Assembly (NCBI RefSeq): GCF_009712225.1
Contig: NZ_WASP01000019.1
Location: 44,770 to 108,769, forward strand
DNA from: Desulfovibrio sp.
GTDB taxonomy: Bacteria > Desulfobacterota > Desulfovibrionia > Desulfovibrionales > Desulfovibrionaceae
Length of the DNA: 64,000 nt
Direction: 5' to 3'
The translations under genes and the position numbers were made by a program. The stretch's first letter is position 1. Every line of letters starts with the position of its first letter. Below, in pieces: positions 11,090 to 18,043 of this stretch. Under the pieces are notes generated by a model. The model did no database searches. It saw only the letters and a list, made by a program, of their open reading frames with translations, and had not been told where the DNA came from.

Positions 11090-11139
11090 GAAAAAGAATG
11101 AAATTCAGGCAGGATACAACGGGGTATCCTGCCTGAATT
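11090..11139 (-). terminator. Rho-independent terminator after cobM
   Basis: 16-bp perfect stem aattcaggcaggatac/gtatcctgcctgaatt with a 6-nt loop, followed on the minus strand by tcattcttttt. Confidence 0.75.
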
Positions 11140-11169
11140 CATGATGCGGAAAGATTTGTGTGGAAGAAA

Positions 11170-11958
11170 TCAGCTTTGGGCGGGGCGGTAGCCGTGGGCA
11201 AAGTCGGCGGCGTAGAGCCGTGATGGGGCACCCTGGCTGTTTTCTGCAGGCAGCACGAGAAAGACCGTCTGCCGGGTGAGGTTGTGGCTGGTGATGCACT
11301 GGGCAAGTTCACCCAGGGTGGTCCAGTAGAGCTGCTCTTCTGGCCAGCTGACCATGTGGGCGCAGAATACCGGGGTTTCTGGCGGCAGGCTGCGCGACAG
11401 CTCGTCTTGCAGCGCCTGCGCCGAAGCGGCGGAAAGGTACACGGCCATGGAGGCCTTGTGCTCGGCCAGCAGGTGCAGGTGCTCGCGCGCGGGAACCGGG
11501 GTGCGGCCCTCAAGCCTGCTGATGATGAGGCTTTGCGTCACTTCCGGCACGGTAAATGTAATGCCGGCGGCGGCTGCGGCAGCGCAGGCGGCGGTGACGC
11601 CCGGTATCACCCGCCAGGGGATGCCGTCCGCATCCAGCAGGGCGGCCTGTTCGCGCAGCGCGCCGTACAGCGAGGGGTCGCCCGTATGCACTCGGGCCAC
11701 GGGGCGTCCTTCAAGGGCGGTGGCCCGCACCAGTGCGTGGCACTGCTCGAGCGTCAGCGGTGCGGAATCCACTACCATGGCCGGAGGCGCGGCGCAGGCC
11801 ACAACCTCGCGTGGAACCAGCGAACCTGCGTAGAGCACGAGAGCTGCCTGTTCAATGGCCTTGCGGCCCTTGATTGTCATGAGATCCGGATCGCCGGGGC
11901 CAGCTCCTACAAATGTGACTGTGCCGGGTGCAACCCCGGCGCGCGCTGCGTCATCCAT
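11170..11958 (-). CDS. cobM: Precorrin-4 / cobalt-precorrin-4 C11-methyltransferase (CobM/CbiF)
   Basis: N-terminal VTFVGAGPGDPDLMTIKG tetrapyrrole-methylase motif and a length typical for CbiF. Starts 3 nt after the cobL stop. Confidence 0.9.
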   Translation of the reverse strand: MDDAARAGVAPGTVTFVGAGPGDPDLMTIKGRKAIEQAALVLYAGSLVPREVVACAAPPAMVVDSAPLTLEQCHALVRATALEGRPVARVHTGDPSLYGALREQAALLDADGIPWRVIPGVTAACAAAAAAGITFTVPEVTQSLIISRLEGRTPVPAREHLHLLAEHKASMAVYLSAASAQALQDELSRSLPPETPVFCAHMVSWPEEQLYWTTLGELAQCITSHNLTRQTVFLVLPAENSQGAPSRLYAADFAHGYRPAQS

Positions 11959-11961
11959 GGC

Positions 11962-13923
11962 TTACCTGCTTTCAGGTTGTGCGCCGGACTGGATTGGGGA
12001 GGGCGCGGGTTTTTGGGCGGCCAGCAAAAATACCGGGTTCATGGCAGAGAGATGCACGTCGCCGCCCAGCGTTTTGCCCTCGGCCGCGGATATCTGCAAA
12101 ATTTCCACAGGCCATGCCATGTCTTCAAAAAAGCGGCGGCAAAGGCTGAAGCTGTCGAGCAGCACACAGCTGACCACCACACGCCCGCCCACGGGCAGGC
12201 GCAGGCACACATGGCCCAGAATGTCATCGCCGTCATCGCCCGAAAGGCCGCCGCCAATAAAGACCCGCTGGGGATCAGGCAGGCCGGGCAGGCATTCCGG
12301 GGCCTGTCCCAGTCGCACCTCCACATTGGCGGCACCAAAGCGGCGGCGGTTTTCCTGAATGCCCATGGCGCGGCCAGCGGAACGCTCTACCGCGATAACG
12401 CGGCCCTCGTGCGCCAGCACCGACGCCTCAAGGGCCACCGCGCCAGAGCCAGAGCCCAGATCCCACACCACATGCCCGGCCTCTATGCGCAGCAGGGACA
12501 AGGCCGCTGCCCGCACGGGTTTCTTGGTGATCAGGCCCCGGTCAACTGCAAGCTGGTCGGCATCGAGGCCCAGATGCGGGCGGCGTGCGGGTGCGGCAGG
12601 CACCAGAACCATGGTGCAGGCGGGGCCAAATTCACGGCTGGCGGCATCGGCCAGGCTCAGATGGCTTACTGTTTCGTCGGCTGCGCCCATGCGTTCAAAA
12701 ATGTGCGCGTCAAACCAGTCAACGCCCCTGTCGAGCAGGTGGCGGGCCAGTACGTCGGGCGACATGCGCGCGTCGGTAAGGATGCAGAGCGGCGCGTTTT
12801 TGCCGCAGGCTACATTGAGGGGGCGCAGGTCGTCGCGACCGTGCAGCGACAGGCAGATGACCTTGTGCCACGGCAGTGAGAGGCGCGCGCAGGCCTGTTG
12901 CAGCGAGCTGACCGCAGGCAGCAGCCGCACCGCTGTGGAGCCAAGACGGCGCACAAGCGTTGCACCAATGCCAAAAAGCAGGGGATCGCCGTCGGCAAGC
13001 ACCAGTACGCGTTCGCCAGCGGCCCGCAACTGGCTGAGGCGGGTGAGCAGCGGTTCAAGTGGTGTGCTGAGGGGCAGCAGGCGTGCCTTGAGGGTCGTGC
13101 CTTCGATAGTGGGCGTCGTGGCAGGCGATTCTCCGCCCGTGGTTTCACTGCCCGCAAGGCTGAGGCCAGAAAATTCTTCAAGCAGCAGGCGGCCTGCGCA
13201 GATAACGTCGGCCTGTTCCGCAAGCTGGCGCTGTGCTTCGGCAAGCCCCGCCAGACCGCGCGGGCGGGCGCAGTCGATCCCCATGACCGTGATGGGTTCG
13301 GGCGTTGCAATGGTGGGCTCGAACACAAAGAAAGACTGCAACATCTCCGACATGGGCGGCCAGTCGTCCTGCTCGGACATGCCGCCAGCCGCGGGGCCAG
13401 CCATGGTGCTGGGCGTCTGGGGCTGTGGGGCATTTGATGCGGGAGTGCTGTCAGGAGCTTCAGTTGCCGGTGCACCATGCAGGTAAGGCGAAGCTTCTGC
13501 TGCGAGTGCAGAAGCAGAATCAGGCGCATCTTCAGAAACTACAGGCTCAAAAGCAGGGGCTGATGCGGGTTCAGGCGCGGATTCCGGGCTTTCATTTTCA
13601 TGAAAAAGCGGAGTTTCTTCCGTTTTTGCGGGCGGCTCCTCGGTCGCTTCATTTGCATCAGCGACATCAGGAGCAGCATCGGCAGCGATGGTGGATTCTT
13701 CTGCGGTAGCGGGCTGCTCGGTGGCGGTTTCTGGGGCGACCTCTGTGGGCAGTTTGGCAGACAGTTCTGCGGGCAACAGTTCAGCAGGCTCAGGGATGCT
13801 GGCCGATTCCGCCAACAGCGTGTGCGTAGTGCCCGTAGCGAGGCCCGCCTCATGCTCCTGTGCCGGAACTGTGGGCGTATGGGATGGCACGGCAATGCCG
13901 GGCAGTGATACCTGTTGTTTCAT
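11962..13923 (-). CDS. cobL: Fused precorrin-6Y C5,15-methyltransferase / decarboxylase (CbiE+CbiT = CobL) with a roughly 200-aa low-complexity N-terminal extension
   Basis: CbiE-like region begins at ITVMGIDC (about residue 211). CbiT SAM-binding motif VWDLGSGSGAVALE. The ATG at 13923 overlaps the cbiD stop (ATGA). Confidence 0.85.
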   Translation of the reverse strand: MKQQVSLPGIAVPSHTPTVPAQEHEAGLATGTTHTLLAESASIPEPAELLPAELSAKLPTEVAPETATEQPATAEESTIAADAAPDVADANEATEEPPAKTEETPLFHENESPESAPEPASAPAFEPVVSEDAPDSASALAAEASPYLHGAPATEAPDSTPASNAPQPQTPSTMAGPAAGGMSEQDDWPPMSEMLQSFFVFEPTIATPEPITVMGIDCARPRGLAGLAEAQRQLAEQADVICAGRLLLEEFSGLSLAGSETTGGESPATTPTIEGTTLKARLLPLSTPLEPLLTRLSQLRAAGERVLVLADGDPLLFGIGATLVRRLGSTAVRLLPAVSSLQQACARLSLPWHKVICLSLHGRDDLRPLNVACGKNAPLCILTDARMSPDVLARHLLDRGVDWFDAHIFERMGAADETVSHLSLADAASREFGPACTMVLVPAAPARRPHLGLDADQLAVDRGLITKKPVRAAALSLLRIEAGHVVWDLGSGSGAVALEASVLAHEGRVIAVERSAGRAMGIQENRRRFGAANVEVRLGQAPECLPGLPDPQRVFIGGGLSGDDGDDILGHVCLRLPVGGRVVVSCVLLDSFSLCRRFFEDMAWPVEILQISAAEGKTLGGDVHLSAMNPVFLLAAQKPAPSPIQSGAQPESR

Positions 13924-15146
13924 AATGCCAATAATTCCCTGCCATCAGTATGAAAAAGGTGCAGGCCCACGGCCTGCCCCGCAAAATTTCGGGCTGTATG
14001 CATTGCCTGCCGGGCTACATGCTCAAGCACCTGTGGGCCAGCGGCGTCTGGCAGCAGCAATTCAAGCGCATGCGCTGCAGTAATGCACCGGGCAATCTCG
14101 CTGCCGCAGGCGGCTCCGGTGGCATCGGCCTGTTGCGCCAGCGCCTGCATGTCGAGGGTGGAGTCCTTGGCGTGGGTGTAGGCATGGCCCTGGGCGAGCT
14201 TGACCAGCTTGCCAAAAAAACAGCCCCACACAATACGCTCAAAGCCCATGGCTCCAGCCGCTTGCAGCGAAAATTGCGCAAAGTCGGCAACCTGCACAAA
14301 ACAGCGTTCGGGCAGTTGCGGATAGCGTTCCATAAGCAGTCTTTCCGAACGCCTGCCCGTTGTCAGGCATACCGTGTGGCATCCCGTGGCGGCTGCAACT
14401 GCCAGCCCCTGCTCAATGGTGGCCTTCCATGCGGCATGGCTGAATGGCCGTACCGTGCCTTGTGTTCCCAGTATGGAAATACCGCCTTCAATGCCCAGCC
14501 GGGGATTGAAGGTCTTTTGCGCCAGGGCTGTGCCTTGCGGCACGCTGACAAAAACGGTCAGCACTGTTTTGGCCGCATTTGCGGTGCCGTGGATATGCCC
14601 GCACGCCTGTTCTCGCAGGGCGAGGCTGATCTGCTGGCGCGGCACCGGGTTTATGGCTGCTTGCCCCACCGGCACAGGCAGGCCCGGCAGGGTGACGCGT
14701 CCGACCCCCGGCCCTCCCTTTATAATGATGTTGCCGGGGTCTGCAAGCTCCGCGCCGTCAAAGGGCAGGGCGCTTTCAACCACAGTGGCGCTTATGCACG
14801 CGCCCGACGTGGCATCGGGATCATCCCCGCCATCCTTGATAATGCTGGCGTGTGCAGAGCGTATGATGCCCTGCGGCGGTGGGTCGCAGTGCCTAAAATC
14901 TTTGGTGTTCCAGCATTCGGCCAGTTCTGGCGCTGGCCCCGGCTGGCAGTTTGCAACCTGCAGGTCAAGCCAGCCGCGCGGTACTGGTTGCCCGACGTTA
15001 TCTGCTTGGGGTGTGCTTGCAAAAGGCGGCAGCGGCACGCGCACACGGGCTGGTGCGCATTCATGGCGCAGCAGATGCAGCGCTGCAAGCGCCGCACCAG
15101 TGGCAGCACTGCCTGTGGTAAAGCCCTCGCGCAGCTTGCCGGGCAT
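13920..15146 (-). CDS. cbiD: Cobalt-precorrin-5B (C1)-methyltransferase CbiD
   Basis: N-terminal LREGFTTGSAATGAALAA is the CbiD signature. 408 aa with an apparent internal insertion. Confidence 0.9.
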   Translation of the reverse strand: MPGKLREGFTTGSAATGAALAALHLLRHECAPARVRVPLPPFASTPQADNVGQPVPRGWLDLQVANCQPGPAPELAECWNTKDFRHCDPPPQGIIRSAHASIIKDGGDDPDATSGACISATVVESALPFDGAELADPGNIIIKGGPGVGRVTLPGLPVPVGQAAINPVPRQQISLALREQACGHIHGTANAAKTVLTVFVSVPQGTALAQKTFNPRLGIEGGISILGTQGTVRPFSHAAWKATIEQGLAVAAATGCHTVCLTTGRRSERLLMERYPQLPERCFVQVADFAQFSLQAAGAMGFERIVWGCFFGKLVKLAQGHAYTHAKDSTLDMQALAQQADATGAACGSEIARCITAAHALELLLPDAAGPQVLEHVARQAMHTARNFAGQAVGLHLFHTDGRELLAL

Positions 15147-15149
15147 GGT

Positions 15150-16055
15150 TCAGGCCTGACTGGGGCGGGTGCGGGCTTCTGGCTCTGGCAGCCATATCTT
15201 GCCCCGGGCCACAAGGGACACCGGGCCGTCCACGCCAGCCATCTCCGCGCCGTTTTCTGTAAACAGCCGTACATCAAGGGCAGATCCACCTGGCTGCATG
15301 ATGGAAAAAGCGCGGCGCGGGCCAGAACGCGCAAGACGCAGAGCAAGGGACAATGCGCCGGACCCGCAAGCGTTTTCAAGAAAAGTGGTGCCCGCATCGC
15401 GCACATGCACGAGCGGCAGCATGTCGAGCTGCCCCTGGCATTCACGCCACCAGATGACCCCGGCGGCTGGCTCGTTTTCAAGATTATGCCGCTGGCGCAT
15501 CTGGGCGGCAACGGCATAAGAGTCGTCGGGCAGTGGATGCACTGGCCCGCCGAGCAGCAGGTGGCAGATGCCCGGCAGACGCACCAGTTGCGCGCCTTCT
15601 TCTACAGTGGTGATGGAATACGAGGGCAGCCGCAGCAGGGCTTCTACCTGCCAGAGCGGGGCCGTGCCTCTGGTGCGCAGTCGCACAGGGCTGTTCCAGC
15701 CGGAAACCTGAATTTCGTCGGTGCGTTCGGGATATTCTGCGTGAACGTCGCCTGCTGGTTGCGCGGTACCGGCGGTCATGCCCTCGAGCACGCCCTGTTC
15801 CGGGCCTGCACTTTGCGCGGTGTACGCGAGCAGAGCGCCCACGGCGCGGCTTGCGTTGACGCAGAATTCACCGCCAGCCATGCGCAGTTTGCCCTGCGCC
15901 AGATGCACAAAGCCCGCCTGCTCTCCGCCAAGCATTGCCGGATCAAGCGCGAGGGCCGCAAGCCGCGTCTGTTCGGCGGGGCGTTGCCCGCTGTCGGGGA
16001 AAAGCAGTGTGGTGTTGCCCCCTGGGCTCCACTTGGAAAAAGTCAGTGCAGGCAT
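15150..16055 (-). CDS. DapF-fold (diaminopimelate-epimerase-like) two-cysteine epimerase/racemase-family protein, first gene of the cobalamin operon
   Basis: Start re-set to the ATG at 16055 (AAGGA RBS 8 nt upstream). Motifs GGEFCVNASRA and ENACGSGALSLAL parallel the DapF motifs QCGNGARC and ETQACGSGACA. The stop lies 3 nt before the cbiD start. Confidence 0.7.
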   Translation of the reverse strand: MPALTFSKWSPGGNTTLLFPDSGQRPAEQTRLAALALDPAMLGGEQAGFVHLAQGKLRMAGGEFCVNASRAVGALLAYTAQSAGPEQGVLEGMTAGTAQPAGDVHAEYPERTDEIQVSGWNSPVRLRTRGTAPLWQVEALLRLPSYSITTVEEGAQLVRLPGICHLLLGGPVHPLPDDSYAVAAQMRQRHNLENEPAAGVIWWRECQGQLDMLPLVHVRDAGTTFLENACGSGALSLALRLARSGPRRAFSIMQPGGSALDVRLFTENGAEMAGVDGPVSLVARGKIWLPEPEARTRPSQA

Positions 16056-16388
16056 GGAAAATCCTTGGTTCACGGCCAAGTATGCCTTAGCCCCGGCGGG
16101 CTGTCCAGCATTGGCGTGCGGGGCGCGCTGGAGGCGCGCAACAGCAGGGCAGGGGGCCGCGCAAAAAAATATGCGGGCAGATGTCATCAGTATATCATTT
16201 AAGGAGTCGCGCAAAACCGAAAGAGTCTTTCCTATTTACAACTTGCGGTTTTTCGCAAACGCGGGTATGTCAAAAGCAGTTGCCGTCTCCAAGGCCCATG
16301 GCTGTGAGTGAGCCGGTAACGTGGCGGGCACACCGCGATTTACTGTTGTGACGGTAATCGACGACACAAACAACGTTTGGGAGGCAGT

Positions 16389-17384
16389 ATGAAATCGTTT
16401 CGTCTTCTTGCTCTTGCGGCCGCTCTTGTTCTGAGCTTCGCCGTGGCCGCTGCGGCCGCTCCGGCGTGCAACAAGAAAATTGAAAGCTTCGACTTCGTCG
16501 TGGACTACTCTGGTTCCATGATGATGAAGAACGACAAGCTCAAGCAGGACAAGATCATTGTGGCCAAAAACGTGCTGACGCGCGTTAACGCCGCTATTCC
16601 CGCTCTGAGCTACAACGGTGGCTTGCACACCCTTTCGCCCAACGGCGCCATCGTCGCCCAGGGCCCCTGGGATCGCGCCGCCATGGCCGCCGGCCTTAAG
16701 AAGCTGAGCAGCAACTTTGATATTTTTGGTCGTATGACCAGCATGGGTAACGGCCTTCAGGCTTACGAACCCTTCATCTCCAGCATGAAGCGCGACGCCG
16801 CCCTGATCCTCGTGACCGACGGTGACAACAACCGCGGTAACGACCTCGTGCAGGTTGTGAGCCAGATGTACGCCAGCCAGCGTAACCTGGTTGTGCATGT
16901 GATCTCCCTGGCCGACACCCCCAACGGTGAAGCCAACATCAAGAAGATCGCCGCCCTGAACTCCAACGCCGTTGTGGTGCGCGCTGAAGAGCTCGCCACC
17001 AGCGACGCCGCTGTTGAACGTTTCGTGCTTTCCGTGTTCTGCAAGGATGAAGACGTCATCGTGCTGCGCGGCGTGCATTTTGCCTTCAACTCCTTCGCCC
17101 TTGACGGCAAGGCCATGGGCATCCTGAACGAAGCCGCCACCCTGATCAAGAACAACCCCAACAAGCGCGTTGTTCTCTCTGGCTGGACCGACTACGTGGG
17201 TTCCGACTCTTACAACATGAAGCTTTCGCAGGAACGCGCCAGCGCGGTTAAGAACTACCTTGCGAAGCAGGGCATTCCTGCCAGCCGCATGACCGCCATC
17301 GGTCGTGGCAAGTCCTTCAAGTATGACAACAAGACCGACGAAGGTCGCGCCATGAACCGGCGCACCGAAGTGTCCTTCGAGTAA
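16389..17384 (+). CDS. Exported vWA-domain / OmpA-C-like peptidoglycan-binding fusion protein
   Basis: GGAGG RBS and signal peptide MKSFRLLALAAALVLSFAVAAAAA. MIDAS motif DYSGS and LILVTDGDNN. C-terminal OmpA-like motifs (GWTDYVGSDSYNMKLSQERASAV, NRRTEVSF). Confidence 0.85.
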   Translation: MKSFRLLALAAALVLSFAVAAAAAPACNKKIESFDFVVDYSGSMMMKNDKLKQDKIIVAKNVLTRVNAAIPALSYNGGLHTLSPNGAIVAQGPWDRAAMAAGLKKLSSNFDIFGRMTSMGNGLQAYEPFISSMKRDAALILVTDGDNNRGNDLVQVVSQMYASQRNLVVHVISLADTPNGEANIKKIAALNSNAVVVRAEELATSDAAVERFVLSVFCKDEDVIVLRGVHFAFNSFALDGKAMGILNEAATLIKNNPNKRVVLSGWTDYVGSDSYNMKLSQERASAVKNYLAKQGIPASRMTAIGRGKSFKYDNKTDEGRAMNRRTEVSFE

Positions 17385-17418
17385 TCGCGGACCTTCGCTT
17401 CAGTCGAATTAAAGCAAA

Positions 17419-17448
17419 AGCCGGGTGGTGTATGCCGCCCGGCTTTTT
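17419..17448 (+). terminator. Intrinsic terminator/attenuator between the vWA-OmpA gene and the next lipoprotein gene
   Basis: Stem agccggg..cccggct followed by ttttt. The next ATG is only 17 nt downstream. Confidence 0.75.
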
Positions 17449-17464
17449 ATGAGGTGCATTGCAC

Positions 17465-18043
17465 ATGCGTAAGATTTTGGCACTTATTCTCGCGATGGGC
17501 CTGGCCACCGGCGGTTGCGCCTGGTTTGGCGGTTCTTCTTCCGAAGAAGTTAAACCCGCTCAGCCCCAGGAACAGACTGCCGCCCCTGAACCGGCTCCGG
17601 CTCCTGAAGCCCCTGCCAAGGACGTAAAAGGCAAGGGCAAGGCCAAGACCAAGGCCGAAAAACCGGCTGAAGTCAAACCCGCTGCCTCTAAAAAGGTTGT
17701 AAAGACCGAGGCTCAGGTCGCCGCCGAGCTTACCATGGTGGGTAACAAGCTTGCCGCCCAGGCCGCACGCACTGTTATGCCTTCCAAGGCATCCAGGGAA
17801 GTGCGCCAGGACAGCAAGGGCTTCGTTGCCAGCTACATTGAAGTGGACGCGTCCAACGTGACCACCGAATTGCGGCCCAGCGCCACCGGTCAGTACGTGG
17901 GCTTTATCCGTTATCAGGAAAAGGTGATGGAATGCCGCGGAAAAACCAAGCAGGAAGCCACCACTACTGCCTCGTGCGAACAGGTTAAGGCTCGTAACCT
18001 TAACGAACTGATCCGTTACGACGGCAGCACCTGGCAGTACTAG
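17465..18043 (+). CDS. Lipoprotein, unknown function
   Basis: GAGGTG RBS 8 nt before the ATG at 17465. Lipobox LATGGC. Pro/Ala/Lys-rich linker followed by a globular C-terminal part. Confidence 0.75.
   Translation: MRKILALILAMGLATGGCAWFGGSSSEEVKPAQPQEQTAAPEPAPAPEAPAKDVKGKGKAKTKAEKPAEVKPAASKKVVKTEAQVAAELTMVGNKLAAQAARTVMPSKASREVRQDSKGFVASYIEVDASNVTTELRPSATGQYVGFIRYQEKVMECRGKTKQEATTTASCEQVKARNLNELIRYDGSTWQY

Follow-up and report, generated by a model that had tools for sequence, protein, structure and literature searches.

To our knowledge, the histidine racemases characterized so far that work without a cofactor number just two: HisR from Fusobacterium nucleatum (FN1732; PDB 9CR1/9CR6; NF052224), and CntK, which is encoded in the staphylopine cluster of Staphylococcus aureus (PDB 6JIS/6JIW; NF033599; PF26317). 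Staphylopine is a metallophore for cobalt, nickel and zinc. In HisR, Glu49, Glu65 and Glu206 were proposed to bind the imidazole and Gly68, Asn69, Ala210 and Ser211 the carboxylate, the glycine that follows the first cysteine in both HisR and CntK being proposed to contact the carboxylate through its backbone (PMC11602996).

The gene that we compare with these systems lies on the minus strand of a 64,000-nucleotide stretch of Desulfovibrio sp. DNA, hereafter the window, where it runs from an ATG at position 16055 to a TGA at positions 15152-15150 and encodes a two-cysteine, HisR/CntK-type protein of 301 amino acid residues assigned to the CntK_N family. The coordinates 15150-16055 given in an initial annotation of this DNA were right; the strand had been left unstated, and translation identified it as the minus strand, the plus-strand frame of the same interval encoding no sensible protein. 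A Shine-Dalgarno-like AAGGA (16062-16066, minus strand) is found 6 nt upstream of the ATG, and this start was confirmed by an alignment of 53 relatives, in which the N-termini of the homologues align at residue 1. Since homologues of the 301-residue protein number in the hundreds and its AlphaFold2 model is confident, the minus-strand ORF is a real gene.

A Pfam-A scan of the protein, performed with a library that did not include PF26317, returned no family at E ≤ 1, and the PF01678, PhzF, PrpF and proline racemase models, the checking of which had been recommended in the initial annotation, were thus all without a match at this threshold. Nor did TIGR00652 (DapF) match in a search of NCBIfam, the sole matches being two histidine racemase equivalog models that were both significant and both far below their cut-offs, namely NF052224 (HisR; 74.6 bits for a cut-off of 400) and NF033599 (CntK; 53.6 bits for a cut-off of 300). 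The best match of a phmmer search against the PDB was F. nucleatum HisR, aligned over its full length (9CR6/9CR1, E 2e-16), CntK scoring more weakly, and precomputed Pfam matches to PF26317 (CntK_N) were found on close homologues, which share at most 93% identity with the protein. An AlphaFold2 model based on the 53 relatives (mean pLDDT 92.5, pTM 0.91), confident except for a loop at about residues 81-110, predicts together with Foldseek a pseudo-symmetric, two-domain α/β fold of the DapF type. HisR was the top Foldseek match (E 5e-22, target TM about 0.8), followed by CntK, with the O-ureidoserine racemase DcsC and DapF at least 9 orders of magnitude worse. The initial annotation was right in proposing a duplicated fold of the DapF type that carries two catalytic cysteines, and right about the large distance of the protein from canonical DapF. 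The motifs on which that proposal relied, GGNTT (residues 12-16), GGEFCVNASRA (around Cys65) and ENACGSGALSLAL (around Cys230), were all found. Although the motifs described as altered from DapF are indeed present, they are not aberrant, GN-T-T and C-x-N-A being the normal signature of HisR and CntK (CntK_N). As judged by sequence comparisons and by the predicted model, the gene is a relative of the HisR/CntK histidine racemase family that represents an uncharacterized subfamily, and is not a DapF.

Across the 53 relatives, whose identity extends down to 33%, N14, T16, E45, Q46, E63, C65, N67 and A68 are invariant, as are H165, E227, C230, G231, S232, Q254 and P255. HMMER alignments place Cys65 and Cys230 on the catalytic Cys67 and Cys209 of HisR, and Glu45, Glu63, Glu227, Asn67 and Ser232 on HisR Glu49, Glu65, Glu206, Asn69 and Ser211, residues that were proposed in the HisR and CntK studies to participate in catalysis and histidine binding (PMC11602996). 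The position of HisR Gly68 is occupied by Val66 in the protein under study and by Val, Leu or Ile in 42 of the 53 relatives. Because the residue replaced next to Cys65 is the glycine proposed to contact the carboxylate, the specificity of the subfamily could differ from that of HisR and CntK. By analogy with HisR, CntK and DapF, Cys65 and Cys230 would be positioned at the N-termini of two central helices and would work as a thiolate/thiol pair, one taking the α-proton and the other returning it on the opposite side. The carboxylate would be held by Asn67 and Gly231-Ser232, and a basic side chain such as imidazole by the acidic trio of Glu45, Glu63 and Glu227. The loop at about residues 81-110 is disordered and corresponds to a clade-specific insertion, which amounts to about 35 residues over the stretch of residues 78-113 compared to a median of 14.

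The gene had been described as heading a cbiD-cobL-cobM operon, with its stop codon 3 nt from the cbiD start, and both points agree with the sequence. The racemase stop codon is followed by the trinucleotide acc and then by the ATG of cbiD at position 15146, and cbiD, cobL and cobM follow in this order, all on the minus strand: cbiD at 13920-15146 (408 aa; PF01888, E 1.4e-77; TIGR00312, 331 bits), cobL, a cbiE+cbiT fusion, at 11962-13923 (653 aa), the ATG of which overlaps the cbiD stop codon, and cobM/cbiF, encoding the precorrin-4 C11-methyltransferase, at 11170-11958 (TIGR01465, 285 bits). A terminator-like hairpin of 17 pairs followed by a T-run, detected by scanning just 3′ of cobM (11101-11140, minus strand), closes the four-gene unit. 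CobL carries an N-terminal extension of about 200 residues (window 13323-13923, minus strand), such that its methylase domain begins near residue 229, and its 653 residues compare with 429-489 in relatives. Upstream of the racemase gene, a scan combined with an alignment of relatives from the clade yielded a sigma-70-like promoter candidate, TGGACA-17-CATACT (16079-16107, minus strand), that is conserved in these relatives. As two clade members that have lost the adjacency and are devoid of cbi genes downstream retain it, this candidate promoter is, on sequence grounds, the racemase gene's own. Transcripts starting from it would have a leader of some 17 nt, too short for a riboswitch; no cobalamin riboswitch was found at gathering score in the whole window or at E ≤ 1 in the interval 15900-16500, RNA-family searches of these regions returning only chance-level matches to unrelated families. 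Given the 3-nt spacer, the racemase gene is likely co-transcribed with cbiD-cobL-cobM, from this promoter, in the Desulfovibrio clade described below. Within the coding region of the racemase are a promoter-like match (15483-15511, minus strand) and a weak terminator-like hairpin (15315-15332, minus strand), each at the chance frequency of the scan; they are a caveat to co-transcription and nothing more.

To place this gene order in context, neighboring genes were mapped by homology at 80 further loci from named genomes in addition to the window, all from Desulfovibrionales except for a few metagenome bins labeled otherwise. Directly downstream of the racemase gene was cbiD at 19 of these loci and cobL at 2, whereas a gene encoding a protein of about 1020 residues came first, with cbiD 3-7 kb away, at 7; this gene only was seen at 10 loci, neither at 35, and 8 were too short to tell. 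In a maximum-likelihood tree of the racemases, all of the cbiD- and cobL-adjacent cases fell in one clade (clade A; 29 rows, SH-aLRT 99) corresponding to Desulfovibrio sensu stricto (D. desulfuricans, D. piger, D. fairfieldensis). Adjacency was kept in 7 of 9 other genomes of the window's own genus, and the five clade members without it still have CbiD elsewhere in their genomes, every clade A genome checked being CbiD-positive. Three distinct branches of the tree show linkage to cbiD-cobL-cobM, whether adjacent or within 3-7 kb. Conservation of the cbi linkage in other genomes, the lack of which had been named as evidence against a cobalamin connection, is thus partial, direct adjacency to cbiD being conserved only within one Desulfovibrio clade.

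The gene most commonly found next to the racemase gene, among those queried by tblastn, encodes a VWA-OmpA protein and is divergently oriented in the window (16377-17384, plus strand). Together with the next gene, encoding a protein of about 190 residues (window 16377-18043, plus strand), it adjoins the racemase gene across many genera, and a second conserved block, GAAAAACCGCAAG...TATAAT, is present in the intergenic region that the racemase and VWA-OmpA genes share. Genes for a Liv-type amino-acid ABC transporter adjoin the racemase gene in divergent orientation in one lineage resembling Nitratidesulfovibrio, and in Desulfomicrobium its neighbors are bacA and flgE; there is no universal partner gene, as is likewise the case for HisR in Fusobacterium. 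The protein of about 1020 residues is conserved 3′ of the racemase gene in many Desulfovibrionaceae (for instance at L046:5043-8111, minus strand; L042:5273-8323, minus strand, where its frame overlaps the racemase frame by 4 bases; and L111:9141-12200, plus strand), and the window's genome, G000, encodes three paralogues (C2:113490-116447, C13:122158-125133 and C5:220097-223000). It matched no Pfam or NCBIfam family; by fold, one of its domains is a metal-dependent phosphoesterase of the PHP-like type, in which the HPH and DHHVHD motifs are invariant, and its C-terminal half is helical and partly hydrophobic. The overall pattern fits an old neighborhood consisting of the VWA-OmpA gene, the divergent racemase gene, the gene for the protein of about 1020 residues, and, further along, cbiD-cobL-cobM, that has been eroded differently in each lineage, and does not fit repeated recruitment of the racemase gene to cbi genes. 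Adjacency to cbiD would then be an inherited gene order, probably resulting from the loss of the intervening gene for the protein of about 1020 residues.

What the analysis shows directly is the family to which the protein belongs and its fold, the residues of its active site and pocket, the order of the genes and their phyletic distribution. We consider it probable that the protein is a cytoplasmic, cofactor-independent, two-base racemase of the HisR/CntK branch that most likely interconverts L- and D-histidine, and we infer that it has no role in corrin synthesis and owes its place to inherited gene order. That the gene might serve cobamide biosynthesis was suggested by its position at the head of the compact cbiD-cobL-cobM unit, from which just 3 nt separate it, and by a gap in the pathway. 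CbiJ, the cobalt-precorrin-6A reductase, acts exactly between CbiD and CbiET, which makes the racemase gene a tempting candidate for this step. CbiJ (PF02571) was not found in the window's 100%-complete genome, where CbiC and CbiG are present. Of 151 Desulfovibrionaceae genomes, a single one yielded CbiJ although 117 have CbiD; for Desulfovibrio and Geobacter, the hole had been described as early as 2004 (PMC545781; see also PMC3543383). A general substitute for CbiJ was rejected, however, for the gene occurs in only 34 of the 117 CbiD-positive genomes (one of the 34 retaining a CbiD remnant only) and is missing from the other 83. Of the 52 Desulfovibrionaceae genomes in which the racemase gene was found, 18 lack detectable CbiD, 13 of these being at least 90% complete, and no match to the gene was obtained at E ≤ 1e-8 in 389 genomes from other families of Thermodesulfobacteriota. 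The cobalamin-pathway role implied by the initial annotation is not supported by these counts, nor by adjacency, which is confined to one clade. A more restricted proposal, in which the protein is a clade-specific accessory that supplies D-histidine as a cobalt-handling ligand or replaces CbiJ, draws on the recurrence of cbi linkage in several branches and on the retention of CbiD by all five clade A genomes that have lost adjacency. We deem it improbable: besides the 83 CbiD-positive, CbiJ-negative genomes without the gene and the 18 that keep it in the absence of CbiD, the pocket has the residues expected of a racemase of amino acids, and no cobalamin riboswitch accompanies the gene, while neither CntL (NAS, PF03059) nor CntM homologues were found for a metallophore route. 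No longer, fused forms (528-2000 aa), fusions with cbi enzymes included, were detected at E ≤ 1e-10, which is weak evidence, and the literature searched yielded no paper connecting diaminopimelate epimerase with cbiD. It is likewise decidedly improbable that the recurrent linkage, together with CbiD in all clade A genomes checked, betrays a clade-specific functional tie, and highly improbable that a Desulfovibrionales-specific C-[V/L/I]-N-A subfamily was recruited to cobamide biosynthesis in the D. desulfuricans/piger/fairfieldensis clade, where it would provide a D-amino acid for cobalt handling or catalyze the step that falls between CbiD and CbiET and for which this lineage has no CbiJ. The operon position is a clade-level feature that by itself is no sign of a new cobalamin step. 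A staphylopine-like metallophore role was also rejected, as the 100%-complete genome yielded no match to CntL or CntM (PF10100), with the reservation that the PF10100 control matched in 0 of 14 reference genomes.

As to the substrate, histidine is most likely by analogy with HisR and from the conservation of most pocket residues, even though the protein is no more than about 25% identical to HisR and scores far below the equivalog cut-offs, both of which count against a histidine racemase. The same fold and two-cysteine chemistry could act on another, probably basic, amino acid or derivative, the C-[V/L/I]-N-A motif reshaping the pocket. This is possible but rather unlikely. The substitution of Val, Leu or Ile for Gly beside Cys65 in 42 of 53 relatives speaks for such a shift, as do the sub-threshold scores against both histidine racemase equivalog models, the Liv-type transporter adjacent in one clade, and the weak lanthionine epimerase activity of HisR itself (PMC11602996); yet the three acidic residues and the Asn and Ser proposed for histidine recognition are all invariant, and no other characterized racemase is closer in sequence or fold. 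That the gene might instead be a redundant or degenerate paralogue of diaminopimelate epimerase is scarcely credible. The DapF superfamily fold and the label 'diaminopimelate epimerase' carried by relatives in some database entries would be in keeping with it, but PF01678 and TIGR00652 failed to match at E ≤ 1, the Foldseek ranking places DapF structures far behind HisR and CntK, and, as had been anticipated, a canonical dapF is found elsewhere in the genome, on another contig (G000:C13:674583-675395), with both of its PF01678 domains above cut-off.

The probable histidine racemase stands for an uncharacterized subfamily, the relatives of which number in the hundreds among Desulfovibrionales of the gut and the environment and which has a characteristic substitution beside a catalytic cysteine. 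Its correct placement removes the mis-annotations 'diaminopimelate epimerase' and 'hypothetical'. The locus is also a warning that position in a cbi operon should not be read as a new B12 step; the long-standing CbiJ gap of the Desulfovibrionaceae apparently remains, as this racemase-like gene does not fill it generally.

Among the known systems, HisR is the closest, aligning over its full length and providing the best fold match. The two proteins share both catalytic cysteines, the equivalents of Glu49, Glu65, Glu206, Asn69 and Ser211, and the motifs GN-T-T, EQ-GF, GI-H and QP-G, and each is a stand-alone cytoplasmic enzyme of about 260-300 residues without CntL or CntM partners in the genome. 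They differ in that the first cysteine is followed by Val instead of Gly and that the disordered loop of the N-terminal domain is 20-25 residues longer in the Desulfovibrio protein; HisR, moreover, is encoded in an 'orphan operon' near pab genes, whereas the gene described here heads cbiD-cobL-cobM. With CntK, the protein shares the fold, the ENxCGSG sequence around the second cysteine and, via close homologues, the Pfam family; in contrast to CntK, to which it is about 20% identical, it is associated with no metallophore cluster and with no CntL or CntM in its genome. DapF, finally, has in common with it the superfamily fold and the two-cysteine, two-base mechanism, but its models do not match the protein, its GNDF and CGNG motifs are absent, and the window's genome encodes a separate canonical dapF.
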